A stretch of DNA of 36,940 bases, from the NCBI GenBank assembly GCA_030613445.1, contig JAUWLY010000001.1, positions 1 to 36,940 on the forward strand. The letters run 5' to 3'. The position numbers were made by a program, and so were the translations under genes. The notes beneath the pieces were generated by a model, which had not been told where the DNA came from, did not search any database, and worked only from the letters and a program-made list of their open reading frames with translations. The first letter of the stretch is position 1. Each line of letters starts with the position of its first letter. Shown here piece by piece: positions 468 through 15,647 of this stretch. Source of the stretch: Candidatus Stahliibacteriota bacterium (GTDB lineage: Bacteria; Hydrothermota; Tepidihabitantia; SM23-42).

Positions 468-489
468 ACCTCCTCCTTTTTCTATTACT

Positions 490-517
490 ATTGTAACTAT
501 TACGTCACGTATGTCAA
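490..517 (-). promoter_or_regulatory. sigma70-like promoter for 12..467
   Basis: Minus strand reads TTGACA (517-512), 16 nt, TACAAT (495-490), about 22 nt upstream of the ATG. Has the extended GTCTTGACA context shared by other promoters in the window. Confidence 0.6.
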
Positions 518-627
518 GACAGGGAAAACAGTAGGCACCAGGAAGTATAAAGGACAAGTCATTAAGAAGAATAGTATCAGAGTAACGGAGTATCGGAGCA
601 TGGGAGAAATGGAGGATACATGTTGAC

Positions 628-710
628 GAGTGCGATAATTTATATCCATGTTTTTGTTATTTAACCGAGACCACCTGACTCTCCATTACTCAGAAAAGGT
701 CTGACCCCAC
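628..710 (+). repeat. intergenic repeat block, copy 1 (homologous to 3853..3979)
   Basis: GAGTGCGATAATTTATATCCATGTTTTTGTTATTTAACCGAGAC...CTGAC...CTCAGAAAAGGTCTGACCCCAC aligns by eye with AAGTGCGAAAATTTATATCTATATTTTTGTCATTTGATTAGGAC...CTGAC...CTCAAAAAAGGTTTGACCCCAT at 3853..3979. Confidence 0.7.
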
Positions 711-818
711 TTCACCCTCAATCCCCGGTGACCATTTGCATTCACTATTCGAGATTTGACCCCATATCACCCACAAAGGCACCGATCCCACATGCCTTTC
801 ATAAATAATAATATGCAA

Positions 819-2300
819 TTACCTTACTTTGATTATCTTTGTTGGCTTAGAATTTTTGGTTATTAGAAAATAAATGCCAGGTAACAAATTCTTTGCAATC
901 GTAGTTTTGTCCGTAGTCTCAACCAAACGACCCGCAACATCATAAATTTTAAATGTAATTTGATGATTATTATTAGATATTAAATACTGCACATTCGTAG
1001 AAGCAGTGAAGGGGTTAGGATAGACTTCTAAAAACTGAGTTTTCTTCGGACAACCTACCTCTTGAGGTACACAATGAGGAAACTTGCTGCTTGCATATTT
1101 GAGCTTTGCTCGATTACTGGACCAATATCCATCACAGTAACAAATATGTATAAAACCATCTCCGTCTATTATAATAGATGCATCGAAACCCATTAACCAA
1201 GGTGCAGAATCTACGGTTTCAACAAACCATTCATTCCCATAGCATGTTGCGTATTTGAGCTGGCGACCATCTTTATACGCCAGGTGCGGAGTGCCATTGC
1301 CATCGAGAGCAAGTGAAAGAGAGCGGGCTCCAGTTGAGACATCTTGGACAAATTCTGACTGCCAGATAGACCCAAGTTTTTCAGCATAATACACATCACT
1401 AGTATTTTTTTGATAAGCGGCATTTGGGTTATTATCAACATCTAGTTTAAGCGTAACACGGTAGCCTGTGGTCAGATACTTCGCAATAGTATCTTTCTGC
1501 CATGTGATGCCGTCCCAATATGCATACATAGCAACAAAGACAGCACCATTATATCTACTACTGTTATAGCTAATGTGAGGATATTGATTTTCATCTAGAC
1601 AAAGAAATTCATTGAAAACAGCGATTTGGTCAGCGTTCTCCACGAGCTCAGTCTGCCACTCAGTTCCATCCCATCTTGTGTAAAGCAAATTGTCATAAGA
1701 ACCGTCTCCATAGGCGATACAAGGGTAATCATTATTGTCAAGAGCAATAGAATTGCCACAAGAATGCCAAGGACCGTCGACACTATCTAAGCGAGTGATT
1801 TCCCATTCAAGGCCATTCCATCTTGCATACTTGAGTTGCCAATCACCACTATATGAGATATGAGGATAATCTCGTGAATCTATCGCAATTGAGGTATAAC
1901 CAACCCACGTGTTGAAACTATCGATCTTCTCTATCTCCCATGACCAACCACTGAATTTTGCATACTTCACTTTATTATCAGTAAAGTGTACATAGCTGAT
2001 ATGAAGCTTCTGATTATTATCAAGAGCCATTGAACTCTGATCGCCAACAGCGCCATCTTCATCATCCACTGTTTCAATGAACCATACATTTAACAGTTCA
2101 TTCTCAAGTCTAGATGTCACATCCATAGAAGTTATCGTGGTATCTATGGCATCACTCAGTGATTCCATGACATGTGTTTTCACCTGTCCATGGATTAATG
2201 CAGGTAATCCCAGTAATGTCATCCTCGCAACAATGAAAATGCCACTAGTCAATGAGGTAATACCCCCTAAGTACGATTTACACGTATGCAATTTCCACAC
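819..2300 (-). CDS. T9SS-sorted secreted protein with propeller-like repeats
   Basis: 493-aa ORF with roughly 8 degenerate ~45-aa repeats (D.N..PHISY / YPCIAY / TPHLAY, then LKYA.W.G..W). C-terminus YPNPF...FKIYDVAGRLV...PGIYFLI...KIIKVR fits the type-A T9SS sorting domain pattern. The GTG start at 2300 lies just after the predicted TSS, so the start is uncertain (alternative ATG at 2222). Confidence 0.75.
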   Translation of the reverse strand: MWKLHTCKSYLGGITSLTSGIFIVARMTLLGLPALIHGQVKTHVMESLSDAIDTTITSMDVTSRLENELLNVWFIETVDDEDGAVGDQSSMALDNNQKLHISYVHFTDNKVKYAKFSGWSWEIEKIDSFNTWVGYTSIAIDSRDYPHISYSGDWQLKYARWNGLEWEITRLDSVDGPWHSCGNSIALDNNDYPCIAYGDGSYDNLLYTRWDGTEWQTELVENADQIAVFNEFLCLDENQYPHISYNSSRYNGAVFVAMYAYWDGITWQKDTIAKYLTTGYRVTLKLDVDNNPNAAYQKNTSDVYYAEKLGSIWQSEFVQDVSTGARSLSLALDGNGTPHLAYKDGRQLKYATCYGNEWFVETVDSAPWLMGFDASIIIDGDGFIHICYCDGYWSSNRAKLKYASSKFPHCVPQEVGCPKKTQFLEVYPNPFTASTNVQYLISNNNHQITFKIYDVAGRLVETTDKTTIAKNLLPGIYFLITKNSKPTKIIKVR

Positions 2301-2312
2301 CTCTACTATATA

Positions 2313-2340
2313 ATTATAACACTTGTTCTGGTGATGTCAA
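2313..2340 (-). promoter_or_regulatory. sigma70-like promoter for 819..2300
   Basis: Minus strand: GTCTTGACA (-35 at 2340-2335), 16 nt, TATAAT (2318-2313). Confidence 0.7.
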
Positions 2341-2418
2341 GACATTACGACGAAGTCAATAGTTGTAGTACCTAGTTACTAGTTCATAGTGCACAAATGC
2401 ACCGACCCCATTCGTCAG

Positions 2419-2733
2419 TTATTCCAGTTCTCCAAGTAATTTCTTTGCCGCTTCAAATTGGTCCTCTCGGATCATTAATATCGCTGGGTCAACTAATGGT
2501 ATATGCATTGTTTGAAAACGCTCACCTCTAAAATAGTAATCAATCTTTGCATCATCAAGTAGTGATTTAATAACTGCAATTTCTACGGTATTAAAGAGTG
2601 CCTTAAGTTGTTTATATGGTGGTTTTGGCGGCAACTCTTTTTCCTCTGGTAGCTTATCGACTAGCGGTACATCACAATCAGCACATACCGTAAAACCAGA
2701 CCTGTATTCAGCTTTGCATTTAGGACAAAACAT
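2419..2733 (-). CDS. zinc-ribbon plus DUF2007-like small protein
   Basis: 104 aa. N-terminal CPKC...CADC zinc ribbon. The C-terminal half (VEIAVIKSLLDDAKIDYYF...AILMIREDQFEAAKKLL) resembles the DUF2007 putative signal-transducing fold. No own promoter motif, so probably co-transcribed with 2821..3726. Confidence 0.55.
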   Translation of the reverse strand: MFCPKCKAEYRSGFTVCADCDVPLVDKLPEEKELPPKPPYKQLKALFNTVEIAVIKSLLDDAKIDYYFRGERFQTMHIPLVDPAILMIREDQFEAAKKLLGELE

Positions 2734-2820
2734 TGTTCCTCATTCTTAGATTTCTCCCTTACTCCTATACTTTCATACTCCGTCACTCAAAAAAGGTTTG
2801 ACCCCATTTGTTCATTGATC

Positions 2821-3726
2821 CTAATGAACCAATATTATTTTCTCGATATATGAGTTTCCTGCAGTTTGGAGTTTCACGAAATATACGCCGGAAACCACTC
2901 TCTGTCCAGCTTGGTCTGTACCATCCCAGACAACCTGATCAAATGAATAATTGATTAAATCCTTAAATTGCCTTACTAACCTCCCGCTCGCATTGTAGAT
3001 CTTTAGCTCCATACCCTCTGCCCAACTTGTCCCGTAGGATAAGCATGTTATCCTATCGGGATGCCCTGTGCTAAATCTGATATTCGTACTCTTGCTGCAC
3101 GGATTCGGATATACGGACAGAAAAGGTGTACCTGTTGCTTTCTCTTCGTGCTCTTTTAAACCCACAATTACATAATCAATAATCAGCGCAGCGTCGAGCA
3201 TTTCATCAGCCCAAAAAGCATAAAAGAAATGCATACACGGTTCAGCAGTACCCCGTGAACCTTTGTACCCAAGTCCGAACCAGGAACTGCTTTGCCAGGC
3301 GTTGATAAAATCATCTCTTGCCTGGGTACCAGTCAAATCAAAATATGTATAGTCTTCTGCACTGGCATTTACTGCCTGGTTTGTCAAATATATAGGTTCT
3401 GTACCACCGCATTCATCCCAGCTTGGGGTATTCGAAACAACGCGATTTATGTCAATCTGAAGTCCAGCACCACCGGTATTGTTACGCAGCCTCAAAACCA
3501 GTGAACTTATTTCAGTCCCCGCACCTGGATAACCATTTATGGTAAATTGATTATAGCCACGATATTCCAAGGTACTGAACCCAGCCGCGGCCATGCCCTG
3601 CGAATGATTTGGACCAATCGGACCAAATAGCCAGTAATAATAACCCCAGTCCCAATCACTATAGAAAATCCGGGTCGGCGCATAGAGTAATAGCAAAGGT
3701 ATAAATATTACGATATATTTCTTCAT
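2821..3726 (-). CDS. T9SS-sorted secreted protein, function unknown
   Basis: 301 aa. N-terminal signal peptide MKKYIVIFIPLLLLYA. C-terminus YPNPCSKSTNIRF...LKIYNASGRLV...SGVYFVKL...KIILVH matches the T9SS type-A CTD pattern. Confidence 0.75.
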   Translation of the reverse strand: MKKYIVIFIPLLLLYAPTRIFYSDWDWGYYYWLFGPIGPNHSQGMAAAGFSTLEYRGYNQFTINGYPGAGTEISSLVLRLRNNTGGAGLQIDINRVVSNTPSWDECGGTEPIYLTNQAVNASAEDYTYFDLTGTQARDDFINAWQSSSWFGLGYKGSRGTAEPCMHFFYAFWADEMLDAALIIDYVIVGLKEHEEKATGTPFLSVYPNPCSKSTNIRFSTGHPDRITCLSYGTSWAEGMELKIYNASGRLVRQFKDLINYSFDQVVWDGTDQAGQRVVSGVYFVKLQTAGNSYIEKIILVH

Positions 3727-3745
3727 ATTACCCGCCTTTAATAAA

Positions 3746-3773
3746 ATTATAACGAAATCGTGCGAGCCGTCAA
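3746..3773 (-). promoter_or_regulatory. sigma70-like promoter for 2821..3726
   Basis: Minus strand: GTCTTGACG (-35 at 3773-3768), 16 nt, TATAAT (3751-3746), about 20 nt before ATG 3726. Confidence 0.65.
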
Positions 3774-3852
3774 GACTTAAGTGTAATTCTGTTCAGTGTT
3801 TCGATAATTCGGGAAGTGTTTTCTCACAACTGAATTCAATTATCTTTTGATA

Positions 3853-3979
3853 AGTGCGAAAATTTATATCTATATTTTTGTCATTTGATTAGGACTATCT
3901 GACACAATCTTAGTTGCTTCCCTTTCTCCGTGTCTCCGTTTCTCCAAGTCTGCGTTTCTCAAAAAAGGTTTGACCCCAT
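3853..3979 (+). repeat. intergenic repeat block, copy 2 (homologous to 628..710)
   Basis: Same module order as 628..710, with an extra internal TCTCCGT-rich insert (CCTTTCTCCGTGTCTCCGTTTCTCC). Ends in GGTTTGACCCCAT. Confidence 0.7.
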
Positions 3980-4003
3980 ATCTTCCGCTTCATAATCGCC
4001 AAC

Positions 4004-4192
4004 TCATTGCGCAACATAGTGTAAAGACCTTCCTTTCCCAGAACTTCTAAGAACCCCTAATTTTACAAGTTTCTTGATTTCTTTCAGAGCACCTTCATCC
4101 GAAAGTTTAAACAGCTTCCTGGTAGGTAGGTTTTTCATATACCACACTTCATCTTGTCTTTTATCGAACCACTTCGTAAACAATCCATGCAA
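4004..4192 (-). CDS. small winged-helix-like protein, possibly a gene remnant
   Basis: 62-aa ORF with TTG start and no clear RBS. The C-terminal LKEIKKLVKLGVLRSSGKGRSLHYV looks like a wHTH recognition region. Its first ~23 codons plus upstream DNA are duplicated at 5575..5711. Confidence 0.3.
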   Translation of the reverse strand: MHGLFTKWFDKRQDEVWYMKNLPTRKLFKLSDEGALKEIKKLVKLGVLRSSGKGRSLHYVAQ

Positions 4193-4260
4193 TTATTACA
4201 AAGATAATAATAATTATACCGTAGCTCATTATTTCTCTGCGCCTCATTTTCCTTTTCACT
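4124..4260 (+). repeat. 137-bp direct repeat, copy A (pairs with 5575..5711)
   Basis: Hand alignment gives about 8 mismatches over 137 bp with 5575..5711. Covers the 5' end and upstream region of ORF 4004..4192. Confidence 0.9.
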
Positions 4261-4352
4261 TGTACATTATCCAAAATTTTGTCATAAAATCAACCCCCGT
4301 CCCCTAGTTTCATTTCTGCGCCTCGTTCGTCAGTGCAAAACTTATCTTGTAG

Positions 4353-4374
4353 AATGTCAAGACCTGCCACCTTT
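4353..4374 (+). repeat. 22-bp perfect inverted repeat, left copy (pairs with 8279..8300)
   Basis: AATGTCAAGACCTGCCACCTTT on the plus strand equals the reverse complement of 8279..8300, which holds the ATG and first 7 codons of the HNH gene. Confidence 0.9.
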
Positions 4375-4389
4375 ATTCATGTACCATTT

Positions 4390-4923
4390 CTATAAATATG
4401 ATCGTGCGATAAATTTTGCCATATGTGAAAGTACACGACAGCAAAATGGTTTCCTCATGCATATTTGCATCTTTCTATTAATATGAATAGATGAGACATT
4501 TTGAAAATAATTGCGCAACATATTAGATATATTTAAATCTTTTAAGTTACCATTATTGTGAATAATAATATTTCTGATTTGAGCATAGATGCAGATCTCG
4601 TCCCACGATTGATGAGATCTGACTGGATTTAAATTAGCTACTAGAGCAATATATTTATTGAACCTATCAAGGAATGATTTTCCACGTATATCCTGCAATT
4701 TCAATTCTAAATTTTTTTCTTGCGCGATGCGTTCACAAATATATCTTAAATGAGATTCAAATAAAGCATAATATCGCAAGAAAAAGGAATAGCGAAACGT
4801 CCTAATAGCTTCATTAATCCAAAATTCTCGTCTATATAATTCCATTTTCTGCTTTTTGATAAGACGAAGATGATGCTCTATTGTCGTTTCAAAAAGGTCT
4901 ACGTATATTCGTGCATAATACAC
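4390..4923 (-). CDS. HEPN-domain protein (RiboL-PSP / MAE_28990-like type), putative RNase
   Basis: 177 aa, all-helical-looking. Contains the Rx4H HEPN motif in YAQIRNIIIHNNG and an upstream LFESHLRYI helix typical of these families. GTG start at 4923, start uncertain. Confidence 0.6.
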   Translation of the reverse strand: MYYARIYVDLFETTIEHHLRLIKKQKMELYRREFWINEAIRTFRYSFFLRYYALFESHLRYICERIAQEKNLELKLQDIRGKSFLDRFNKYIALVANLNPVRSHQSWDEICIYAQIRNIIIHNNGNLKDLNISNMLRNYFQNVSSIHINRKMQICMRKPFCCRVLSHMAKFIARSYL

Positions 4924-4971
4924 ACTGGCGGATAAAATTAAATCCTCTATCTTCGTTATTATTCATCCTCC

Positions 4972-5394
4972 TTACTCTTTCAACATTCTACTATACGGCT
5001 TTTCAATAACTTCACCGTTTTTCTTTACTAAAAATACTCTTAATTTCAATAGTCGCCAAGCGTATTTCATTTTTTTTACTTTATTCTTATAAACACGCAG
5101 CCATTCATGTGGAATGCCAATTGCATATATTCGTCCCTTCTTAGGATGATTACCCTGAATATCCATCCTTGATATTATCTGTCCTAAAACATTATAAAAA
5201 GCGCTGTGTAGTTCTTGATGCTTGTGTTTACCGCTACCGCCTTTCACTTCAATAAATAACAACCTTCGCCACTTTGGATGCCAGGCATGAATATCCACCC
5301 CGTGTTCGCCAATACGCTTTGGTGCTTTCTTGATTTTCCAGCCTTTATCAATAAGGTATTTTCGAATATGTCGTTCAACTATTTTTTCTTTCAT
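4972..5394 (-). CDS. PD-(D/E)xK (restriction-endonuclease-fold) small nuclease-like protein
   Basis: 140 aa. ERHIRKYLIDKGWKI...GVDIHAW...LLFIEVKGG matches the alpha-beta-beta-beta core with D...ExK (D in GVDI, E-V-K in IEVKG). RBS AAGGAGAAAG before the ATG. Confidence 0.6.
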   Translation of the reverse strand: MKEKIVERHIRKYLIDKGWKIKKAPKRIGEHGVDIHAWHPKWRRLLFIEVKGGSGKHKHQELHSAFYNVLGQIISRMDIQGNHPKKGRIYAIGIPHEWLRVYKNKVKKMKYAWRLLKLRVFLVKKNGEVIEKPYSRMLKE

Positions 5395-5537
5395 CTTTCT
5401 CCTTACTCCCTAGTGTCTAGTGCCTACTGTCCAGTATTCCTCCTCTTACTACCCAAACAGCCATTCCTCACCTCCCTTGAGATTTCTCTTCGAATAAATA
5501 CTGCAATCACTCACATAATCAAAATGTCCAATGTCCA

Positions 5538-5574
5538 GCTGAAAGTGCTGAAGAATTGAAGTGATCTAACCCCC
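5538..5574 (+). repeat. 37-bp direct repeat, copy 1 (pairs with 7621..7657)
   Basis: GCTGAAAGTGCTGAAGAATTGAAGTGATCTAACCCCC is identical at 7621..7657. Weaker similarity extends upstream (AATGTCCAATGTCCAGC vs AAAGTCCAAAGTCCAGC). Directly abuts repeat 5575..5711. Confidence 0.9.
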
Positions 5575-5711
5575 AGGTAGGTTTTTCATATATCACACTT
5601 CTTCTTGTCTTTTATCGAACCACTTCGTAAACAATCCATGCAATTATTACAAAGATAATAATAATTATACCCCAACTCATTATTTCTCTGCGCTTCATTT
5701 TTCTTCTCACT
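5575..5711 (+). repeat. 137-bp direct repeat, copy B, with truncated copy of the 4004..4192 gene start
   Basis: Near-identical to 4124..4260. In this copy the reading frame (TTG CAT GGA TTG TTT ACG AAG TGG TTC GAT AAA AGA CAA GAA GAA GTG TGA) stops after 16 codons. Confidence 0.9.
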
Positions 5712-5740
5712 ACGCATTACTCCTTACTCACTACTGTCCT

Positions 5741-6049
5741 TTAAGGTTTGACCCCACATCTTGTACCATCTTCAAGTCTTCTTAAATGTGAGAACTCAGT
5801 AATTTTAACTACTTCAGACATTATCTTCAATAAATCATTTTGGTGCGTTTCTTGATGTCTGGCGAGAAAATCGATTAGGGCTGAAACAATATTTCTCTTA
5901 TACTCATTCCAATTGAGTTTTGATAAGATACTCGGATCGCTAATTGTATGCATTATGAAACTGCGAAGTTCTGCTTTATACCAATAAATACTGGTTAACG
6001 CATTTTTTAAGGCATTAATAGCAGCTGATGATATAGCTTTCTTTCTCAT
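5741..6049 (-). CDS. hypothetical protein, operonic partner of the TIR protein (possibly truncated)
   Basis: 102 aa. RBS GAGGAAAAG, and the start is 9 nt after the TIR gene stop. The last codons and stop (TGT GGG GTC AAA CCT TAA) lie inside the recurrent GGGGTCAAACC motif. No family recognised. Confidence 0.5.
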   Translation of the reverse strand: MRKKAISSAAINALKNALTSIYWYKAELRSFIMHTISDPSILSKLNWNEYKRNIVSALIDFLARHQETHQNDLLKIMSEVVKITEFSHLRRLEDGTRCGVKP

Positions 6050-6058
6050 TCTTTTCCT

Positions 6059-6784
6059 CTAATAACTCTTTATAATCTCATTATGTAATATATCTGCAAT
6101 TTCTTTCAAAGATTTTTCATTAGTTATTAACGCAATTTTATCAGCTAATGGTGGACTATATCGGAGTACATCTTTCTTGTTTATACCATGCCAAATAGGT
6201 AAAATCACTTTCTGCCCTTCTATTTCTCGGGCAACCAAACCATTCAATTCATATTCTGGCCAATCTTTATCAAAAAAAGCCGTTGAGAGTACAACTATAC
6301 CGAATCTTGAATTTACTAATCCTTTATCTATTGATTGTCTTAAACTATCTCCAACTCTTAATTCAAATTCATCATACCATATTTTTAATCCCAGTTCGGT
6401 TAATTGTCTAGCCAATGGTCTCACAAATGAGTTCTTATCTTCACTAGCATGACTTATAAATGCATCATAGCCAATATTATTTGGTTCATTTTTCGTTTTA
6501 TTAAATTCACTATCGTACAAACGTAACATTAACCCAGAATGAAAACTAAATGCTTCATCAGCGGAATTGAATTTTGATTTTGTATATAGGTTCATCGGTG
6601 TGGTGCCTCCTATAACCCACCATTCCTTATCATTTTTGTCTGTTGTGACAACTGATAATACTATATCTTCTTTTCCAAACAGGTAAAAAGTTTCATAGTA
6701 CTTAATATCAATTACTTTCGTTTTGCCTTCCAACTCAACATATTCCTTTGCTCGTTTAATGATTTCCTTTACATCTAATCCCAT
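6059..6784 (-). CDS. TIR-domain protein with unrecognised ~105-aa N-terminal domain
   Basis: The C-terminal 135 aa (YDAFISHASEDKNSFVRPLARQL...IWYDEFELRVGDSL...IVVLSTAFFDKDWPEYELNGL...ILPIWHG) matches bacterial TIR_2 hallmarks, including the glutamate in W.EYEL. RBS AAGGAGGG. Confidence 0.85.
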   Translation of the reverse strand: MGLDVKEIIKRAKEYVELEGKTKVIDIKYYETFYLFGKEDIVLSVVTTDKNDKEWWVIGGTTPMNLYTKSKFNSADEAFSFHSGLMLRLYDSEFNKTKNEPNNIGYDAFISHASEDKNSFVRPLARQLTELGLKIWYDEFELRVGDSLRQSIDKGLVNSRFGIVVLSTAFFDKDWPEYELNGLVAREIEGQKVILPIWHGINKKDVLRYSPPLADKIALITNEKSLKEIADILHNEIIKSY

Positions 6785-6848
6785 TAATCCCTCCTTTGAT
6801 CACAGTCCATTGTCGAGATTTGACCCCACATCTCCTGCCTCATTTTTA

Positions 6849-7481
6849 TCAATAAGCCCATTGTACTGTCCATATCGTATTGCCGAGTGTATCTGGCCAG
6901 CATTCTACCAATACTACTCTTGGTACAGTAATTGATATACTACCAGAGTCAATGAAGATGTTTGTATCACGATAAACTTCCCAACAATAATCGTCAACCG
7001 TTACAGTATCGGATACGACAATAGTATGAAATTCATCTGGCGGAGCATCTACATGGAGAATATAATCTCCACTTGCGCCGGTCAAATGTAAATCAATTGG
7101 TGAGAGACAAGTACTATCATAACCACTGCTATGTAGACATATTTCACATTCTTCAAATGGTGGATAGTATAAATAAATCAGATCGGTGGTAATGGCAGAT
7201 TCGATGAGCTCATCTTCAACATAGAGATCGATAATTAATGTATCACCATAATACGAGGAAAAGATACCCTGAACGATCTCGTATTCATCCTCTAATTCAT
7301 GATTATGCGAAGCTGGTACGGTATCCATGCCTTCAATATAATTGTTACCAGGTATATCGCCAATATAGTAATAAAATTCAGCTCCATCAGTACCGCTAAC
7401 TCTAAACTCAACGCTTTGTGGGTAATTACCACAACCAGCGACAAACAGAATTGCGCAGCCCAACCAGATATAGCCTTTCAT
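6849..7481 (-). CDS. lipoprotein, function unknown
   Basis: 210 aa. The signal peptide with lipobox (MKGYIWLGCAILFVAG-C) predicts a lipoprotein. RBS GGGAGG 5 nt upstream. Confidence 0.7.
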   Translation of the reverse strand: MKGYIWLGCAILFVAGCGNYPQSVEFRVSGTDGAEFYYYIGDIPGNNYIEGMDTVPASHNHELEDEYEIVQGIFSSYYGDTLIIDLYVEDELIESAITTDLIYLYYPPFEECEICLHSSGYDSTCLSPIDLHLTGASGDYILHVDAPPDEFHTIVVSDTVTVDDYCWEVYRDTNIFIDSGSISITVPRVVLVECWPDTLGNTIWTVQWAY

Positions 7482-7518
7482 TCTTACCTCCCTTGTGTGA
7501 GTTCATTTAACTGCTATA

Positions 7519-7549
7519 GTATTATTAATAATCTCTTGACAGTCAAGAG
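7519..7549 (-). promoter_or_regulatory. promoter for 6849..7481 inside a 17-bp palindrome
   Basis: CTCTTGAC-A-GTCAAGAG (7533-7549) presents a -35-like hexamer on both strands. The minus-strand TTGACT (7546-7541), 16 nt, TAATAC (7524-7519) fits the lipoprotein gene. Confidence 0.5.
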
Positions 7550-7620
7550 CCGATGTATAGATTCATTTATCTCATCCGTAAAAGTCCAAAGTCCAGCGGA
7601 ACGTATCGAAGTATTGAGAT

Positions 7621-7657
7621 GCTGAAAGTGCTGAAGAATTGAAGTGATCTAACCCCC
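7621..7657 (+). repeat. 37-bp direct repeat, copy 2 (pairs with 5538..5574)
   Basis: Identical 37-mer located 38 nt downstream (gene sense) of the stop of 7696..7992. Confidence 0.9.
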
Positions 7658-7695
7658 TTTATCGCATAAATTCGTTTATGTATAGAGGAAAGCCT

Positions 7696-7992
7696 CTACC
7701 GCTTTTTCCTTTTAGTCTTTGATAAATTAGTCACGGTAACATGCATCCTCTTCTTACGCACCTGCTGCATTGCTTTATTCATATCCTTTTGCGGAACCCT
7801 TAGGATTTTATTTTTATTCCTTTGAGTTTTCAAACGAGACAACGCTTGATCTATCTTCTTCGGAGTACCGCCTCTTTCAACTTCGATTGCATGATGACCG
7901 CGAATTGCATCAAGACGACGACCACGTGAAATAGGAACTTCTTTTCGAGCGGCTTTCCCCTTGCCACGTTTGTGTGATCTACTTTCTGGCAT
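7696..7992 (-). CDS. hyper-basic small protein (nucleic-acid-binding?), partner of the HNH gene
   Basis: 98 aa, very rich in K/R at both ends (HKRGKGKAARK...; ...KTKRKKR). The central RLDAIRGHHAIEVERGG is faintly nuclease-core-like, but no family is recognised. Lies 46 nt downstream of the HNH gene. Confidence 0.5.
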   Translation of the reverse strand: MPESRSHKRGKGKAARKEVPISRGRRLDAIRGHHAIEVERGGTPKKIDQALSRLKTQRNKNKILRVPQKDMNKAMQQVRKKRMHVTVTNLSKTKRKKR

Positions 7993-8038
7993 GATTACCT
8001 CCGATTTTCTTATATACTATTTGTTATTATGCTTTAAG

Positions 8039-8299
8039 TCATAATGTTCTGCTATGACAATCCCAGCAAAGAATTTCACAATTTGAAAGACTATCGGAGC
8101 CTCCACTTTGAATACTCACCCGATGGTGAGCTTCCCATGAACCCCAACCGCTATCACGACCACGATTCCCCCACGATAGGGTTTTATTACACCGCCCTAC
8201 ATGACCATGGGTTGTTCGCGCGCACTCAGATTTGCCGCCTGATCTTTGCCATGCAGCCTTCACAGTTTCTTCAGGAGAAAAGGTGGCAGGTCTTGACAT
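8039..8299 (-). CDS. HNH endonuclease (small, stand-alone)
   Basis: 86 aa with C..(H)GH..C...WEAHH...(14)...NCEILCWDCH, the classic HNH beta-beta-alpha-metal motif with Cys pairs. Confidence 0.8.
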   Translation of the reverse strand: MSRPATFSPEETVKAAWQRSGGKSECARTTHGHVGRCNKTLSWGNRGRDSGWGSWEAHHRVSIQSGGSDSLSNCEILCWDCHSRTL

Positions 8300-8300
8300 T
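8279..8300 (-). repeat. 22-bp perfect inverted repeat, right copy (pairs with 4353..4374)
   Basis: Plus strand AAAGGTGGCAGGTCTTGACATT is the reverse complement of 4353..4374. Overlaps the HNH start codon. Confidence 0.9.
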
Positions 8301-8361
8301 AGACATTTTCCTCGCGGATTATTATATTGATACCAGTGATTCTTGTTCCCTCAATAGTGAA

Positions 8362-9420
8362 CTATCGTTCATTAGATATGACCAATGATAATCGTCTACC
8401 ATCTGCATCAAAGCCGTAGATTTTGTATTTTCCTGTTTTAGAATCGTAAATATAGCATACTTGTCCTGGTTTTCCTTCAGTGCCATCAACTGCTGGTAAT
8501 ATATCGGGATCAACTGGGTTAATGAATGAAGATGGTAGCAAGTGTAAAAAATTGGAGACTGCTTGAGGATATACACCTTCATTATCTGTAGAGTATAGTT
8601 CTACCGAGAGTTGCATAGTGTGCATGTTAATTCTAACCGCCTCTTCCAATTCTTCATTTGATGGTTTGTACTCATATTGGTCAATAACATAATAAACAAC
8701 CTTAGGTGTAATGACTGAATATGAATTATTAATAGTGAGTGTAACTTCTTCATCCGCCGGAGTGTAACCGCCACCAATAAAAGCAGTTGTTGGGTTAATT
8801 TTCTGACTAGCAACTAAGGAACCACCCTCATCACGTAATGAAATTATGACATCTTCTTCTTTAACGGTCGCGAAACACACAACAAGAGTTTTCCCTGAAA
8901 TTGTATAGGTTATATCTTTAGTCTTACCTGCATCAATGACTATTGTTTTTGCAATTTCTTTTTTTATAGGAAGTGCCTTAAGTACTTTTTTCTCTTCTAT
9001 GATCGGACATGGTACATACGCTTGACCACCTTCCCATAGATGTCTGCGGTAACCAATTAGGTTACCTTCTTCATCAAGAGTAACTATACCAGGTAACATT
9101 TCTGAAACTTTCTTAAACTGATTACTTTTAAAACCGTATATTTCCGTCCAGCAAGCAGCACCTGGACAGATTACTATTGCAATTTCCTTGCCTTGCATGC
9201 TAGAGCAGTAGTCATTTATCTGAACAGTATAAAGACCTTCCTCGCCAGAGACAACTATATGTCTTGTACCCGTAGCACCATTCACCACAACCACACTTTG
9301 TTCACCTATCTTAATCTCATCATCAACGCCATCACCCGTTACGTCAGCCATTTTAGTCTCGCCTTTTAAGAAAGAAAACATGAATATTAGCACAAAGATG
9401 AATATTACATATTTTTTCAT
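8362..9420 (-). CDS. secreted protein, function unknown (FG-GAP/VCBS-like DVTGDGVDD motif)
   Basis: 352 aa. Signal peptide MKKYVIFIFVLIFMFSFL. RBS AGGAGGAAAA. One DxDGDGxDD calcium-binding-like motif near the N-terminus. Confidence 0.65.
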   Translation of the reverse strand: MKKYVIFIFVLIFMFSFLKGETKMADVTGDGVDDEIKIGEQSVVVVNGATGTRHIVVSGEEGLYTVQINDYCSSMQGKEIAIVICPGAACWTEIYGFKSNQFKKVSEMLPGIVTLDEEGNLIGYRRHLWEGGQAYVPCPIIEEKKVLKALPIKKEIAKTIVIDAGKTKDITYTISGKTLVVCFATVKEEDVIISLRDEGGSLVASQKINPTTAFIGGGYTPADEEVTLTINNSYSVITPKVVYYVIDQYEYKPSNEELEEAVRINMHTMQLSVELYSTDNEGVYPQAVSNFLHLLPSSFINPVDPDILPAVDGTEGKPGQVCYIYDSKTGKYKIYGFDADGRRLSLVISNER

Positions 9421-9466
9421 TTTTCCTCCTCTTTTTACAAAATTTAGTAATTCAATCTAACAAACA

Positions 9467-9488
9467 TAAAAATCTTTGCTGCGCAAAG
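9467..9488 (-). terminator. intrinsic terminator after the hicA-hicB-secB-like operon
   Basis: Minus strand: CTTTGC-GCA-GCAAAG hairpin followed by ATTTTTAT, about 45 nt after the stop at 9533. Confidence 0.55.
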
Positions 9489-9532
9489 GAAGTTGATCAA
9501 TTTTTTGTCGTGCTTTTTCCTCTGGTTTCATG

Positions 9533-9955
9533 TTACGTCGGTATCTGTATTGTATCCAGCACGATCGGTGGTAAATTCATGTTTAGGGTCATCTGGTGTA
9601 CGCATTGCCGGAAATAGGGCCATGTTTGAAGGCGTAAGCTACTTTTGGCAAATATGTTAAAATATGCTTTATTAATCGGCATTTTTAACGTATATTTCAG
9701 TAAGTAATGTATCTCCATTGCAAATCCAGGCTTATCTGCATCTTTTTTCTTTCCTTTGAGTGTATAGATCTGCTTTACTTCGATTTTTTTCTCATCTATT
9801 GATTCATAACTTGCTTCATCCTTTATTAACAAACCAGCTGGAGGTTCGAAGTTCTTATCCACTGTTGCTTTTAGCGATGTCATTTTTATTTCATCGAGCG
9901 TTAAACCTTTGATGAATTTTCTATATTCGGATTTGGTGACCTTTATCTCCTTCAT
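9533..9955 (-). CDS. SecB-like chaperone (third gene of a TAC module)
   Basis: 140 aa. The C-terminal FAMEIHYLLKY...LRLQTWPYFRQCVHQMTLNMNLPPIVLDTIQI parallels E. coli SecB FLCEVQQGGIF...[41 protein letters not shown], and the start is 9 nt after the hicB stop. Confidence 0.65.
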   Translation of the reverse strand: MKEIKVTKSEYRKFIKGLTLDEIKMTSLKATVDKNFEPPAGLLIKDEASYESIDEKKIEVKQIYTLKGKKKDADKPGFAMEIHYLLKYTLKMPINKAYFNIFAKSSLRLQTWPYFRQCVHQMTLNMNLPPIVLDTIQIPT

Positions 9956-9964
9956 TATTACCTC

Positions 9965-10516
9965 TTAGGATCTTACAACTCCTGGTTTTTTCCATGTCAT
10001 TTTAGGTATTTTGCTTTTTTCTGACAAGGTTTCATATACCGTATCAGGTTGGGCTATTTTCATTGCTTCTTGTTTTAACTCGTATTCTCCTTTGGTTCTG
10101 CTTTCAATTTCCCATAAAGCAGTTTTAATTTCAATTTTAATTTCCTTAAAAGTCACCCGCTCGGACAAAAGTGTTAGTGCCATCTGATTAAGGCTGACGC
10201 CTTCTTTCTTAGCCAAGCGAGCAATGCGACGGTGCAGCGAAATTGGAATCCTCACAAGGAACTTGCCACTATATTCCTTGGTTGTCTCAGGTTCAGAAAC
10301 AACCTGATTTTTTTTCAGCATCGATTCAAACCACATTTTTTTTGCTTGTTCAAGATTTTTCAATGCTTCTTCTTGCGTCTCTCCTTGAGACATGCAGCCA
10401 GTCAATTCATCAATCTCAGCGAAGAATCCACCTGCTTCTTCTGGCATTAGTTTTATGGTGTATGGAAGACTCAAATAATATTCAAGATCGTGCTTTTTAT
10501 TCTTAATTTTGCTCAT
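9965..10516 (-). CDS. hicB: HicB-family antitoxin with RHH domain and a ~50-aa C-terminal extension
   Basis: 183 aa. HicB N-domain (YTIKLMPEEAGGFFAEIDELTGCMSQGETQEEALKNLEQA). RHH segment (GKFLVRIPISLHRRIARLAKKEGVSLNQMALTLL). Extra tail ...TALWEIESRTKGEYELKQ...KMTWKKPGVVRS. Overlaps hicA by 14 nt, and GGAGG precedes the ATG. Confidence 0.8.
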   Translation of the reverse strand: MSKIKNKKHDLEYYLSLPYTIKLMPEEAGGFFAEIDELTGCMSQGETQEEALKNLEQAKKMWFESMLKKNQVVSEPETTKEYSGKFLVRIPISLHRRIARLAKKEGVSLNQMALTLLSERVTFKEIKIEIKTALWEIESRTKGEYELKQEAMKIAQPDTVYETLSEKSKIPKMTWKKPGVVRS

Positions 10517-10754
10517 ACCATTCCTCCAGGTTTAATATTTCTATGATTTTCCTTATATAACCACGTTTTGCTTTTTTATGTTTTTTCGGTATCGTAATAG
10601 ACGGGAAACCGGTTTTCCCATATACGAAATGACTTCCAGACGTAGATCTATCCAACTGCCACCCAAACCATCTAAGCACCTTTGCAACCTCGTCGAACCG
10701 CATTTCTGGTGGTAAACGAAGCATCTTTTTGACTAGTTTCTTTACGTTTGCCAT
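10503..10754 (-). CDS. hicA: HicA-family mRNA interferase toxin
   Basis: 83 aa. FDEVAKVLRWFGWQLDRSTSGSHFVY...TIPKKHKKAKRGYIRKIIEIL matches the YcfA/HicA pattern (GSH...H.K.L..G). Confidence 0.85.
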   Translation of the reverse strand: MANVKKLVKKMLRLPPEMRFDEVAKVLRWFGWQLDRSTSGSHFVYGKTGFPSITIPKKHKKAKRGYIRKIIEILNLEEWYEQN

Positions 10755-10763
10755 TCACCACTC

Positions 10764-10792
10764 ATTATACTATATATAGTATCACCTGTCAA
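10764..10792 (-). promoter_or_regulatory. promoter of the hicAB-secB-like operon (near-leaderless)
   Basis: Minus strand: TCTTGACA (-35 at 10792-10787), 17 nt, TATAAT (10769-10764). Only 9 nt separate the -10 from ATG 10754. Confidence 0.7.
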
Positions 10793-11138
10793 GATATTTT
10801 ATATAAAATCCATGAAAAATAGAGCCTTTTTCTGGTGAGATCCGTTTTCTAATACACTCTTTTCGTGTTATTCTGCTCTCACTCCCATTCACCGTCATAT
10901 TACTCACTCCCCCTTCTTACTCGCGAATTTCCGCCTATGCTATTATCCACAAATTACCGCATTAGTCAATAATCCCCACTAACCAAAACAAAAAAGGCAT
11001 AGCCCCTTAACCACCAAACACACGTAGATACAGCTAAGGCAACTACACCTTTGTGGATTTTTCCAAACCTGCTACTTAGTTAAAAAATCCGTCATACCCG
11101 TTCTGTCTCCAGAACGGTTCTCATACCTTCTCAATCAA

Positions 11139-11166
11139 ATTATATGTATTATTTATTAGATGTCAA
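11139..11166 (-). promoter_or_regulatory. orphan promoter plus leader module (no downstream ORF)
   Basis: Minus strand: CTCTTGACA, 16 nt, TATAAT, then TTGATT-GAGAAGGTATGAG. The same GAGAAGGTATGA leader start follows the two ORF6N promoters. Followed by an 8-bp hairpin CCGTTCTG-GAGA-CAGAACGG (11117-11098) and T6 (11087-11082). Confidence 0.55.
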
Positions 11167-11345
11167 GAGACTTAAGAGTAAAAGCGTCCCGGTGAAACAT
11201 TTGACTCACGGGATAAATAAACCGTACACCACCCGCTTCGCGGAAATGTGGCATGCATTCTGTTGAAGATACGCCTTCGGCTGGAAGACATGCTTCGCTG
11301 AAGAAAAGAACTAAATAGACCAGGCAAACTAAAGAGTTAAACCTA

Positions 11346-11374
11346 TTGATATTGGATGGTGTCTAATGTATAAT
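11346..11374 (+). promoter_or_regulatory. promoter of the TonB-dependent-receptor-like gene
   Basis: TTGATA (11346-11351), 17 nt, TATAAT (11369-11374). The -10 overlaps the first ATG of the long ORF (11366), which argues for the ATG at 11390 as the start. Confidence 0.6.
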
Positions 11375-11389
11375 AAACAACAAAATCCA

Positions 11390-13843
11390 ATGATAAAAAG
11401 ACCGATAATTACGAGCTTTATATTAATGCTTGGTTTTGCAGGCATTGTATATGCCCAACATCCAGGTGGGCCACCAGGAACAGGCTTTGCGGATTTTAAT
11501 GGCAAACTGAGCGGCAATGTATATGACGCTGATTATCAAGAACCGATTGAATATGCGAATATCGTGCTTTTCAGGCAAAAAGATAGCGCGCAGGTTACAG
11601 GCACAATAACTAATCCGCAGGGTTATTTTCAATTGACTGATATTAAGCCTGGTATGTATTATATGGAGATATCATTTATGGGTTATAAAACTCATACAAT
11701 CAAAGGCATTAAGATAACTCCGGCTAATCCGGAAGTTCACGCGGGAAATATTTCTTTAAAATCAACAGTTTTACCAGTAGAAGGTACTGTTGTTGAGGCA
11801 GAACGTCCTGTGATGTCTTATGAGATAGATAAAAAAGTAATAAATGTGAGTAGACAGACAACGTCTGTTTCTGGTACTGCGGTCGATGTCCTGGAAAATG
11901 TACCATCAGTAAATGTGGATATCGAAGGCAATGTAAGTCTGCGCGGCAGCGAAAATTTCACTGTGCTCATAAATAGTAGACCGACAATCCTGGACCCGAG
12001 TGATGCCCTGCAACAGATCCCTGCCAGCATGATAGATAACATCGAGATCATTACAAATCCTTCAGCCAAGTATGATCCTGAGGGTGTTTCTGGTATTATC
12101 AACGTTATCATGAAGAAAAAGACTCTGCAAGGAATAAGTGGTATTGCAAATATGAATGTCGGGCTGGATGAAAAATACGGAGGAGATTTTCTTGTTAGTT
12201 ATCGCACAGGAATAGCTAATTTGTTTCTTAGTGCTAGCTACCGCAAATATAGTTTCCCTGGTACGAGCACGATTGAAAACAGGACTACTAATAATGATAC
12301 TACTTCCTATGTATTATCAAGTGGACAAACTTCGCGTTGGTGGAAACCGTACGGTCTGCGCATGGGAGTGGACCTGCAACTCGGTATCAGAGACAAACTG
12401 AGCCTTGGAGGGCAATATCGTGCATGGGAAATGGAGCACATTAATGAACTCAATTACGATGAATGGTCAGAACCCGGTGATACTACTCATAATCTGTATC
12501 TGAGTCAAGATAACGGCGAATTCTCACACCAATATTATTCATTAACACTTGATCACGTACATCGCTTTGGAGAAAAGAACCACAACATAGCCTTGCGTGG
12601 CGTGTACAGTCATATCAAGAGAACTCGTCTCTCTTTTGATGAACTTCTTGATACTACAGACGTAATCACGAGTGGCCGTAGAAACGAAGAGCAGGGTCCA
12701 ACAATGTTTGCACAAATAAAACTTGATTACACCCTGCCTGTGCGAGAAAAAAGCAAATTCGAAGCAGGCTTTCAGGCCAGACCGAACCGCTCTGAAGAGG
12801 ACGCAAAAACATATGAATACGATACTACTACTGGAAACTATGAGTACGCGGAGCAGTTCAGCCATTCAACTAAGTATACTCGGGATATATACGCATTATA
12901 TACAATGTATTCAGGTACATGGCATAGATTTGGGTATCAAGGAGGACTGCGTAGTGAAATTACTCACCGTCTCATTGAAATGATTGGCGAGGATGAACAA
13001 TTCACTTTAGACCGATGGGATTATTTCCCGAGCTGCCATGTCTCGTATAAATTCCCAAAGGGCCAACAGCTTATGGCAAGCTATACGCGCCGGATTAGCC
13101 GTCCCAGACCGTGGTGGTTCGAACCATTCATAACCTGGTCAGATGCATATAATGTACGCAAAGGAAATCCCGAGCTTAACCCAGAATACATTGATTCATA
13201 CGAACTTGGTTTTCAGACATTCCTCGGCAAGAGTCTGATCTCACTCGAAACTTTTTACCGTAAAACCCATAATAGTATTGAACGCGTCCAGTCTTTGTAC
13301 AGCGATAATGTAATTCTGCATACGATTGAAAATGTCGGAACTGATAGGGTACTTGGTGTCGAAGGAATGTTTGACGTCAAATTAGCAGCATGGTGGAACA
13401 TCAATTGTACAGGGAATCTGTTTCAGCAATGGATAAAAGGTGAACTTTACGGACAGAGCTTTTCTGAAGAGAATTTTAACTGGAGCACAAGATTCAGTAA
13501 TGAATTTAGAGTGTTGCCGACAACCAAGCTCCAATTCAATGGAAGATTCCACAGCCCACGACTGTCAGTTCAGGGACAACGTGAAGCATATTTCACTATT
13601 GACGGAGCAATAAAACAGGGATTTTTTAATAAGAAACTGAGCGCAACTCTGCAAATAAGGGATATTTTTAGTACGAGCAAACGCGAATATACATCTGAAG
13701 GCGAGGACTTTTATTATTACAGGTATTCTGACCGCAAGTCGCCTGTCGTGATGCTTAGTATTAATTACAACTTTAATAATTACAAACAAGAACGCCGACG
13801 CGACGACACTGAGCAAGATTTCGAAGGCATGGAGGAGATGTAG
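11390..13843 (+). CDS. TonB-dependent-receptor-like outer-membrane beta-barrel protein with CarboxypepD_reg-like N-domain
   Basis: ORF 11366..13843. Signal peptide MIKRPIITSFILMLGFAGIVYAQ. N-domain LSGNVYD...ANIVLF...GYFQLTDIKPGMYYMEISFMGY. Plug-like AVDVLENVPSVNVDIEGNVSLRGS, followed by a long beta-rich region. Start 11390 is preferred over 11366 on the promoter argument. Confidence 0.8.
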   Translation: MIKRPIITSFILMLGFAGIVYAQHPGGPPGTGFADFNGKLSGNVYDADYQEPIEYANIVLFRQKDSAQVTGTITNPQGYFQLTDIKPGMYYMEISFMGYKTHTIKGIKITPANPEVHAGNISLKSTVLPVEGTVVEAERPVMSYEIDKKVINVSRQTTSVSGTAVDVLENVPSVNVDIEGNVSLRGSENFTVLINSRPTILDPSDALQQIPASMIDNIEIITNPSAKYDPEGVSGIINVIMKKKTLQGISGIANMNVGLDEKYGGDFLVSYRTGIANLFLSASYRKYSFPGTSTIENRTTNNDTTSYVLSSGQTSRWWKPYGLRMGVDLQLGIRDKLSLGGQYRAWEMEHINELNYDEWSEPGDTTHNLYLSQDNGEFSHQYYSLTLDHVHRFGEKNHNIALRGVYSHIKRTRLSFDELLDTTDVITSGRRNEEQGPTMFAQIKLDYTLPVREKSKFEAGFQARPNRSEEDAKTYEYDTTTGNYEYAEQFSHSTKYTRDIYALYTMYSGTWHRFGYQGGLRSEITHRLIEMIGEDEQFTLDRWDYFPSCHVSYKFPKGQQLMASYTRRISRPRPWWFEPFITWSDAYNVRKGNPELNPEYIDSYELGFQTFLGKSLISLETFYRKTHNSIERVQSLYSDNVILHTIENVGTDRVLGVEGMFDVKLAAWWNINCTGNLFQQWIKGELYGQSFSEENFNWSTRFSNEFRVLPTTKLQFNGRFHSPRLSVQGQREAYFTIDGAIKQGFFNKKLSATLQIRDIFSTSKREYTSEGEDFYYYRYSDRKSPVVMLSINYNFNNYKQERRRDDTEQDFEGMEEM

Positions 13844-13965
13844 CGTCCCGGCAGAAAAAAGATTCCACCCCGAATGCTATTGCTACGGGGCAGACAGGAT
13901 AAATAGGGCGAGAAGCGAAAAGAAATGACCGTAGACAGAAAAACAAAGAATGAAGCGTAGGGCAT

Positions 13966-13988
13966 CCCGCTGCTCAAAGAGCAGCGGG
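13966..13988 (+). terminator. 10-bp hairpin (H1 repeat module), possible terminator of 11390..13843
   Basis: CCCGCTGCTC-AAA-GAGCAGCGGG followed by ATAAATCTTCTT, a weak U-tract. Part of the recurrent GCGTAGGGCRTCCCG...CGGGATAAAT module. Confidence 0.4.
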
Positions 13989-14072
13989 ATAAATCTTCTT
14001 ACTCTATCTCCGATACACCGGTACGCCGTTACTCCGATACTGCCCTTTCAAGGTGAACACCTGGTACCCGTG
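13986..14072 (+). repeat. R-C repeat, short copy (pairs with 27939..28078 and 35029..35168)
   Basis: GGGATAAATCTTCTTACTCTATCTCCGATACACCGGTACGCCGTTACTCCGATACTGCCCTTTCAAGGTGAACACCTGGTACCCGTG is near-identical to the 3' 86 bp of the other two copies. Confidence 0.9.
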
Positions 14073-14086
14073 TCGAAATTACAATC

Positions 14087-14115
14087 TTGACATTCTATCC
14101 ATTACAACAATAATA
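14087..14115 (+). promoter_or_regulatory. promoter for 14132..15226
   Basis: TCTTGACA (-35 at 14087-14092), 17 nt, ATAATA (14110-14115), 16 nt before the ATG. Confidence 0.65.
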
Positions 14116-14131
14116 CGGTAGGGGAATATGG

Positions 14132-15629: not shown

Positions 15630-15647
15630 AATAGTAGCGGAGGATAT

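Follow-up and report, generated by a model that had tools for sequence, protein, structure and literature searches.

The stretch of DNA analyzed here, referred to as the window, is a 36,940-nucleotide (nt) contig from a Candidatus Stahliibacteriota bacterium. Its positions 4004–10754 contain a cluster of genes of conflict-system type, including a gene for a TIR-domain protein and an operon for HicA, HicB and a SecB-like chaperone. This cluster is most probably a small, partly decayed islet of defense and toxin–antitoxin (TA) genes, whose modules were acquired independently, within a 14-kb strain-specific plasticity zone (approximately 654–15065). The window corresponds to the entire contig C262, the longest in a metagenome-assembled genome (MAG; here G000) of 2.8 Mb that comprises 371 contigs, with a completeness of 76% and a contamination of 4%. 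The TIR gene and the HicAB–SecB operon lie within 4.7 kb and are accompanied by genes for an HNH nuclease and a putative PD-(D/E)xK nuclease and by remnants of fic and Mrr-type genes. The features are listed in Table 1.

The accessory status of the region is apparent from a DNA-level comparison with members of the same genus. In G003, window positions 654–15065 are swapped for a segment of 2.2 kb, and the homologue of the open reading frame (ORF) at 12–557 is located about 2.5 kb from the LVIVD gene, which occupies positions 15612–17822 in the window. The flanks, positions 1–654 and 15587–17827, match congeners at 86–97%, with the order and orientation found in G003. In G006, the LVIVD gene adjoins quite different genes, and no island gene was found at the corresponding locus in either of the congeners examined (G003 and G006). 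All island genes are present once in G000, which alone among 272 phylum genomes contains the 102-amino acid (aa) ORF and the full-length form of the TIR protein. The PD-(D/E)xK gene, the 98-aa gene and the toxin–antitoxin–chaperone (TAC) operon have homologues at other loci, in low-GC regions. As judged by eye, these low-GC regions carry restriction-modification-type genes.

The 2.2-kb segment of G003 contains a gene for an outer-membrane-like protein, together with a HEPN-MNT pair that matches the PADLOC model PDC-M05 (A, 3.8e-50; B, 8.6e-17). This pair (L011, G003:C2, 10756–11758) consists of a HEPN protein and a nucleotidyltransferase with a winged helix-turn-helix (wHTH), and PDC-M05 is a candidate system.

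An earlier annotation made from the letters of the window alone (the sequence-only reading) had described positions 4004–10754 as looking like a defense island or variable region, to be delimited by comparison with syntenic regions of related MAGs. That comparison confirms that the region is accessory, as its genes are absent from the locus in G003 and G006 and are patchy or unique within the phylum. By contrast, the boundaries given to the island do not hold, since the segment that differs from G003 extends from 654 to 15065 and also contains surface proteins sorted by the type IX secretion system (T9SS), a TonB-type barrel and a CAAX protease. Nor does the region form a single coherent island, because the GC content at third codon positions (GC3), the taxonomic affinities and the locations of homologues differ gene by gene. 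The whole contig is a mosaic, beyond its 4–11 kb part. In G003 and G006, conserved genes also lack window positions 19486–26553 and 27001–29777 between them; these two segments carry genes for adhesin-like proteins and an Lcl_C/T9SS protein, as well as ORF6N-domain genes.

All ORFs retained across positions 12–10754 lie on the minus strand. The co-oriented block noted previously is thus real, but its left edge, which had been placed at 4.0 kb, is not, as the minus-strand run begins 4 kb earlier. The GC content of positions 4004–10754 is 36.6%, compared to 41.3% for the genome, which ranks at the 2.5th percentile among 446 equally long windows of the genome. Positions 4004–7003 reach 34.5%, the 0.5th percentile of 1890 genome windows of 3 kb. 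Positions 10755–36940 have a GC content of 42.1%, with further low-GC patches at 23.5–24.5 kb and 28.5–29.5 kb. Codon-usage log-likelihood proved uninformative as a measure of foreignness because the preferred codons of the genome are AT-rich, and it was replaced by GC3. Extreme GC3 percentiles are restricted to positions 4390–7481 and 8362–9420, and were obtained for the TIR gene (0.003), the HEPN-like gene (0.019), the gene of the 352-aa protein (0.021), the 102-aa ORF (0.026) and the lipoprotein gene (0.048). The values of hicA (0.41), hicB (0.20), the SecB-like gene (0.45) and the 98-aa gene (0.20) are ordinary, and the frame antisense to the HNH gene has a GC content of 45.5%. Because GC3 differs from gene to gene, the AT shift is a property of certain genes and not of the whole block. 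The GC and codon profile proposed in the sequence-only reading therefore reveals a shift, but one that is carried by some genes rather than by the block.

The deepest GC trough is due to the TIR gene, which has a GC content of about 33% (32–34%) in hosts whose genomes range from 33 to 52% GC. The encoded protein matches the profiles PF13676 (2.9e-19), PDC-S66 of PADLOC (2e-69) and ThsB1 (3.5e-44), all of which cover residues ~95–235 only. The N-terminal domain (residues 1–100) has no family match in profile searches of Pfam, PADLOC, NCBIfam and PHROG. Searches against the PDB returned the TIR domain of AbTir (7uwg/8g83) with an E-value of 3.5e-53 over 133 residues, as well as TcpB and PdTIR. 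The glutamate of the WxxxE motif is kept, with WPEYE aligned to the corresponding motif of AbTir. Its homologues number more than 7000; the best are 63–70% identical over the full length and include records labelled as Bacteroidales and Asgard. On three long contigs, the gene stands alone in unrelated contexts. No domain of a ThsA-type effector (SIR2/SLOG or Macro/TM) was detected in any ORF of the first 15 kb of the window. Relatives of AbTir have been reported in defense-associated loci (preprint 10.64898/2026.10.06.757174).

The second module that appears intact is the TAC operon. The hicA and hicB genes overlap by 14 nt, and the SecB-like gene follows hicB after 9 nt. The operon is preceded by a consensus promoter 5' of hicA at 10792–10764 (TTGACA-17-TATAAT, 12/12), and a terminator-like hairpin is located 3' of the SecB-like gene at 9488–9474. 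The best PDB match of the SecB-like protein, a weak one, is the TAC chaperone Rv1957 of Mycobacterium tuberculosis (E=0.16). The extension of HicB past its ribbon-helix-helix domain displays a series of aromatic residues (F123, W135, Y145, Y161 and W175), positions that are kept in the homologue from G008. The sequence of the extension makes it a candidate chaperone-addiction segment (ChAD). It fits the chaperone-addiction segments that have been described, and HicAB-type TACs have been described and are functional (PMC5105189). TACs are able to protect against phage (PMC9519451; bioRxiv 2024.02.24.581848).

G008 belongs to another genus, and its homologous HicA–HicB–SecB operon (L017, G008:C18, 8568–10742) precedes a RadC-like fragment and another SecB-like copy, which is truncated at its N-terminus. 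It adjoins LexA-like and DinB-like genes, as read by eye. In the window, the 611-nt divergent gap between hicA and the gene of the TonB-type barrel contains another perfect (12/12) sigma-70-type promoter, at 11166–11139 on the minus strand, with no ORF behind it.

Base composition, domain identities, gene truncations and the absence from congeners are shown by the analysis. From these we infer the following scheme, including every biochemical activity and any anti-phage role in it. Small conflict modules, separately acquired, would accumulate in the plasticity zone and partly decay, and two of them, the single-gene TIR module and the hicA–hicB–secB operon, look intact. The N-domain of the TIR protein might hold the enzyme off until a trigger allows self-association of the TIR domains. 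NAD+ would then be cleaved, possibly to a cyclic ADP-ribose isomer, and the infection would be aborted through depletion or signaling. In the operon, as in described TACs, the SecB-like chaperone would stabilize HicB via its aromatic-rich C-terminal extension. Diversion of the chaperone, for example by a phage protein, would lead to the loss of HicB and to cell arrest by the HicA RNase. Nucleases of uncertain status (PD-(D/E)xK, HNH and HEPN-like), at least two dead genes (fic and Mrr-type) and unrelated exported proteins surround the intact modules.

Table 1. Genes, gene remnants and repeats of the islet, with their window coordinates.
Feature	Position	Strand	Basis or remark
HicA toxin gene	10503..10754	-	PF07927 2.1e-9, above gathering
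HicB antitoxin with ~64-aa C-terminal extension	9965..10516	-	PF05534 2.2e-13, above gathering; PF15919 3.6e-8
SecB-like chaperone gene	9533..9955	-	PF02556 2.4e-4; PADLOC PD-T4-9_C 2.5e-5; NCBIfam SecB 0.0012
Secreted 352-aa protein	8362..9420	-	signal peptide read from sequence
Small stand-alone HNH nuclease, 86 aa	8039..8299	-	PF01844 1.7e-8
Conserved 98-aa basic protein	7696..7992	-	193 homologues
Orphan lipoprotein	6849..7481	-	lipobox VAGC
AbTir-type TIR NADase-like protein	6059..6784	-	~100-aa N-domain without family match + TIR domain containing WPEYE
3'-truncated Mrr-type nuclease remnant (102-aa ORF)	5741..6049	-	first ~97 codons of ~305-aa gene
Small stand-alone putative PD-(D/E)xK-type nuclease, 140 aa	4972..5394	-	motif GVDI...FIEVKG + weak family matches
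HEPN-like all-alpha protein, 177 aa from GTG	4390..4923	-	invariant R117-N-x3-H122
Internally deleted fic locus	3967..4310	-	fic upstream region + last ~43 codons (wHTH tail, ORF 4004-4192)
137-nt direct repeat	4124..4260 and 5575-5711		94% identity between copies; copy 1 within fic-upstream sequence
37-nt perfect direct repeat	5538..5574 and 7621-7657		first copy abuts 137-nt copy 2
22-nt RAYT-flank repeat copy	4353..4374	+	inverted relative to 8278-8300

The ORF that adjoins the TIR gene is a gene fragment. A phmmer search with the 102-aa ORF gave 325 matches, in which most of the full-length proteins have 299–312 aa and are covered by the query at residues ~3–97 only, and the ORF lengths of this Mrr-type family cluster at 303–320 aa (80 loci). 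Intact members of about 305 aa consist of an N-domain that is weakly EAD8-like, a linker and a C-terminal Mrr_cat (PF04471) restriction-endonuclease domain. The ORF shows 65% identity to the family N-domain over aligned columns (69% by phmmer) and ends at residue 102, with the coiled linker and the Mrr_cat domain deleted. In a sibling contig from JGI (L139; 4358 nt, 96% nt identity), an intact gene of 314 aa starts 9 nt after the TIR gene. Relative to L139, 679 nt are missing from the window, where the interrupted frame continues into a repeat headed by GGGGTCAAACC. The idea that the 102-aa ORF is a small partner of the TIR protein was rejected on these grounds. The ORF is one of four uncharacterized genes (5741–6049, 6849–7481, 7696–7992 and 8362–9420) that the sequence-only reading had put forward as defense candidates by guilt by association. 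It is indeed conflict-related by origin, but it has lost its nuclease domain and represents a dead fragment. On the 3' side of the intact TIR–Mrr pair, the segment 1986–4209 of L139 includes a gene for a 247-aa membrane protein with a homologue in the island of G004:C105. A ~65-nt repeat headed by GGGGTCAAAYC is present there in two copies, which follow the Mrr gene and the last gene.

A second remnant is found at the left end of the islet. Contig C156 of G000 encodes an intact Fic protein of ~350 aa, with the motif HPFVDGNGRTAR, that ends in the same wHTH as the window ORF 4004–4192, for which a weak Pfam match to SoFic-like_C was obtained. Window positions 4161–4310 match C156:1913–2062 at 95%, and positions 3967–4120 match C156:3161–3325 at 86%; approximately 1.1 kb of fic is therefore missing. 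Dispersed repeats sit at the breakpoints of the gene remnants. Copies of the 137-nt repeat are dispersed across the genus (G001, G002, G004, G005, G006 and G007). The inverted pair at 4353–4374 and 8278–8300 has arms of 34 nt at 85% identity, with a perfect core of ~22 nt, and its second copy coincides with the first seven codons of the HNH gene. The gene remnants and the long direct and inverted repeats announced by the sequence-only reading are thus present, as the fic and Mrr-type remnants, the 137-nt and 37-nt direct repeats and this inverted pair.

Elsewhere in G000, two units of ~1 kb (1009 bp; C345:9254–10262 and C109:1530–2538) each carry a gene for an IS200-like Y1_Tnp protein of ~315 aa (PF01797 7.9e-10). 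Both genes are bracketed in inverted orientation by a 23-nt sequence, of which the inverted pair in the window represents copies, in the manner of genes for REP-associated tyrosine transposases (RAYTs; REP, repetitive extragenic palindrome). The 23-mer has about 15 more copies in different parts of the genome. The genome contains the word GGGGTCAAAYC 62 times, where 1.6 occurrences would be expected, and five of these lie on the minus strand at 0.7–6.8 kb of the window. A looser scan returned 70 words, 26 of them within 100 nt after a co-oriented stop codon. The word is a general gene-end motif. Its use as a marker of accessory genes was not supported, since the preceding genes are not significantly AT-richer (p=0.13).

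The remaining nuclease-type genes are small, and their assignments differ in strength. The HEPN-like protein has only three homologues in a search of 5.8 billion clusters, and residues R117, N118 and H122 are invariant in all four members. The Rx4-6H motif is present as R117-N-I-I-I-H122. Matches to HEPN profiles are weak (0.002–0.003), a search of its profile against the PDB found nothing, and its AlphaFold2 (AF2) model has a mean predicted local distance difference test (pLDDT) score of 88.9. Upstream of the GTG codon, the in-frame residues IITKIEDLILSAS match the N-termini of the homologues, up to position ~4959, without an ATG, GTG or TTG codon, and the original start codon of the gene may have been lost, as far as the sequence indicates.

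The PD-(D/E)xK-type protein has five weak matches to families of that fold, namely UPF0102 (0.002), Hjc (0.09), NOV_C, XisH and the C-terminus of TmtA, with D33...E49-V-K51 as the candidate motif and no sequence match in the PDB. Copies at 78–85% identity are located in restriction/defense neighborhoods, two in G004:C105 and one in G006:C66. These stretches have a low GC content, and their genes were classified by eye: HsdM-like, DUF262-like, DUF4238-like and pentapeptide/ion-channel-like in G004:C105 (L016, 2100–15500), and Dcm-like, Vsr-like and ATPase in G006:C66 (L022, 1–4600). The PD-(D/E)xK gene of these stretches encodes 139 aa and is twice followed by a gene for a 69-aa membrane protein. 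A conserved two-gene cassette of the HEPN-like and PD-(D/E)xK genes was considered and rejected, since the HEPN-like family has only three homologues, of which the one on a long contig is isolated amid housekeeping genes, and since the copies of the PD-(D/E)xK gene found in G004 and G006 are paired differently. Of the identities given to the genes by the sequence-only reading, those of TIR, HNH, HicA and HicB are strong and that of the SecB-like protein is moderate; those of the PD-(D/E)xK and HEPN-like proteins are based on motifs.

For the other three candidates, the proposal by association is likewise not supported. The lipoprotein has no family match in the Pfam, PADLOC, NCBIfam and PHROG profile searches, and its relatives amount to weak partial matches in just two other genomes of the phylum (three genomes including G000). 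A weak promoter-like site (9/12) is located 5' of its gene at 7546–7518. The N-terminal part of the 352-aa protein (residues 1–255) is conserved at the level of the family, with homologues in other genera of the family and in none of the seven congeners, whereas its C-terminal domain of ~95 aa matches many phylum proteins of 140–160 aa. No match was found in Pfam, PADLOC or NCBIfam. Both are exported proteins for which no linkage to defense was found.

The 98-aa protein has homologues that are 70–90% identical, in records labelled Planctomycetes, Proteobacteria and KSB1, and its gene is present in five of the 272 phylum genomes. Residues D28, E37 and E39 are invariant in the family. The AF2 model shows a confident small alpha/beta core (pLDDT ~90), and a fold search with it returned no significant match. 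In three loci (L135–L137) the gene follows genes for a serine recombinase, an XRE protein and an ImmA/M78 protein of prophage-like elements; at other loci it is itself followed by variable genes, one of them PIN-like. It is probably cargo of mobile elements. This position beside recombinase and immunity genes of prophage type does not bear out the guilt by association proposed for it.

Several observations weigh against the interpretation of the stretch as a decayed islet of defense modules. Conflict-type domains are found in only about 7 of 12 ORFs, and the HEPN fold is unconfirmed: a Foldseek search against the PDB gave no significant match, the best HEPN entry being 7ae6 (E=5.7, TM score 0.33–0.38). 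The SecB-like protein scores 21.5 bits with PF02556, below the gathering cut-off of 26 bits. PDC-S66 is a candidate system only, and its profile matches the TIR half alone; AbTir itself conferred no anti-phage phenotype in E. coli (preprint 10.64898/2026.10.06.757174). G003 retains 163 nt matching the 3' end of the CAAX-protease gene, and a deletion on the G003 side may explain part of the difference between the two genomes. Finally, the window yielded neither an integrase nor a tRNA nor the ends of an element. The scanned window ORFs contain no recombinase or transposase domain, the tRNA scan of the window returned nothing, and all Rfam families remained below their gathering scores throughout it.

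Other origins of the region were considered. In this genus, conflict genes could be carried from one variable locus to another in short cassettes with dispersed repeats at their ends, namely the ~65-nt GGGGTCAAAYC unit and the 23-nt RAYT-flank repeat, in which case the island would be an array of such cassettes in decay. Exchange would proceed by recombination between repeats, without an integron integrase and possibly helped by Y1 transposases. The homology between L139 and the window, which sets in 11 nt 5' of the TIR start and picks up again within the repeat unit that follows the Mrr gene, agrees with this explanation, as do the presence of the unit after two different genes in L139, the recurrence of the 247-aa gene of L139 in the G004 island, the excess of the word in the genome with its five minus-strand copies in this part of the window, and the existence of RAYT genes flanked by the 23-mer. 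We nevertheless consider it unlikely, as the word marks gene ends in general and the genes before it are not significantly AT-richer, the TAC operon is equipped with a consensus promoter of its own and the lipoprotein gene with a weaker promoter-like site, unlike integron cassettes, and no hairpin or recombination site has been demonstrated, with no Rfam family at gathering score in the window. An integron-like array (a cluster of attC sites lacking an integron integrase, CALIN) was examined separately and rejected: the sigma-70-type promoter of the TAC operon and weaker promoter-like sites precede genes of the stretch, the repeat units have no obvious attC-like hairpin by eye, and no integron integrase was found in the window. 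Integration of a single mobile element, prophage or integrative, that brought all the genes together and of which the block is the decayed cargo end is quite unlikely. It would account for the common orientation of the genes, for the position of the 98-aa gene directly after the recombinase, XRE and ImmA/M78 module of prophage-like elements, and for the small HNH gene next to it. However, the block as a whole is not delimited by a recombinase, a tRNA or flanking att-like repeats, the GC content of the genes varies from 31 to 45% and their GC3 percentiles from 0.003 to 0.45, homologues of individual genes occupy different loci in congeners, and the TIR–Mrr pair has another context in L139.

Given that the MAG is fragmented, incomplete and slightly contaminated, and that the island is rich in repeats also found on other contigs, the contig might be an assembly or binning artifact in which unrelated fragments were joined at dispersed repeats. 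This is very unlikely in view of the flanks, which match congeners in sequence, order and orientation, of the TIR–Mrr junction, which is independently present in the JGI contig, and of the length of the contig, the greatest of the assembly. We give even less credence to the proposal that the TIR and Mrr-type genes formed a two-gene Thoeris-like system, now inactivated here, in which a TIR signal would activate the nuclease via its N-domain. The two genes are intact and 9 nt apart in L139, and a TIR-domain gene lies directly upstream of an Mrr-type gene in a KSB1 genome (L069). However, a TIR neighbor is present in only one of the 80 Mrr-type loci, which have no recurrent neighbor at all; the three TIR homologues on long contigs have no Mrr-type gene, and no similarity was found between the two N-domains. 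The independent acquisition of small modules in a plasticity zone remains our preferred interpretation.

Interpreted in this manner, the stretch is an ordinary kind of bacterial variable region, and both the TIR gene and the HicAB–SecB operon are ordinary as well. It provides a worked example of a defense/TA islet in a poorly studied, uncultured lineage. Much of its low-GC signal corresponds to the TIR gene, which shows 63–70% identity between distant phyla and retains its base composition in whatever genome it lands, and to a few low-GC neighbors. Guilt by association is unreliable in such islets, as the four candidates turned out to be one dead fragment, two exported proteins and one probable cargo of mobile elements. 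The intact HicAB–SecB operon and the TIR gene are testable candidates for abortive infection.

The islet resembles known defense islands in its clustered conflict genes (TIR, TA and nucleases), its lower GC content, its absence from close relatives and its gene debris, and in the occurrence of a different system, the PDC-M05-like HEPN-MNT pair of G003, between the same flanks in another species. It differs in being small and partly dead, with only two intact modules that match models of defense systems. No integrase or transposase is located inside it, where only RAYT-flank repeats and a gene linked to prophages elsewhere were found, and it is interleaved with exported proteins in a larger variable zone, to which genes for surface and outer-membrane proteins also belong. 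The 23-nt sequence, inverted around IS200-like Y1 genes, scattered over the genome and present at two island sites, is comparable to REP/RAYT and BIME-like (bacterial interspersed mosaic element) mosaics. In contrast to these, inspection of the 23-mer revealed no palindromic REP hairpin, and any mobilizing role of it here is putative.

The TIR domain is very close to those of the AbTir/TcpB/PdTIR family and keeps the WxxxE glutamate, and like AbTir and PDC-S66 it is encoded by a single gene found in defense-type neighborhoods. Its N-terminal ~100 residues set it apart, as they are matched neither by the PDC-S66, ThsB1 and PHROG profiles nor by any Pfam family. With respect to Thoeris, a ThsB-type TIR is present (the ThsB1 match covers the TIR half only) and a ThsA-type effector is not. 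The 5741–6049 fragment shares the N-domain of stand-alone, type IV-like Mrr endonucleases that have an adaptor-like domain at the N-terminus, without their linker and Mrr_cat domain. The operon has the toxin–antitoxin–SecB-like gene order of described TACs, such as HigBA1–SecB(TA) of M. tuberculosis, HicAB–SecB(TA) of Methylomonas, CmdTAC/PD-T4-9 of E. coli and MqsRAC. It also has an antitoxin with a long C-terminal extension and spaced aromatic residues, and its chaperone matches the PD-T4-9 profile. Its toxin is HicA, whereas that of CmdTAC is an ADP-ribosyltransferase. The similarity to SecB, below the Pfam gathering score and faint for Rv1957, is weak, and chaperone addiction and any phage trigger of the operon described here are putative.

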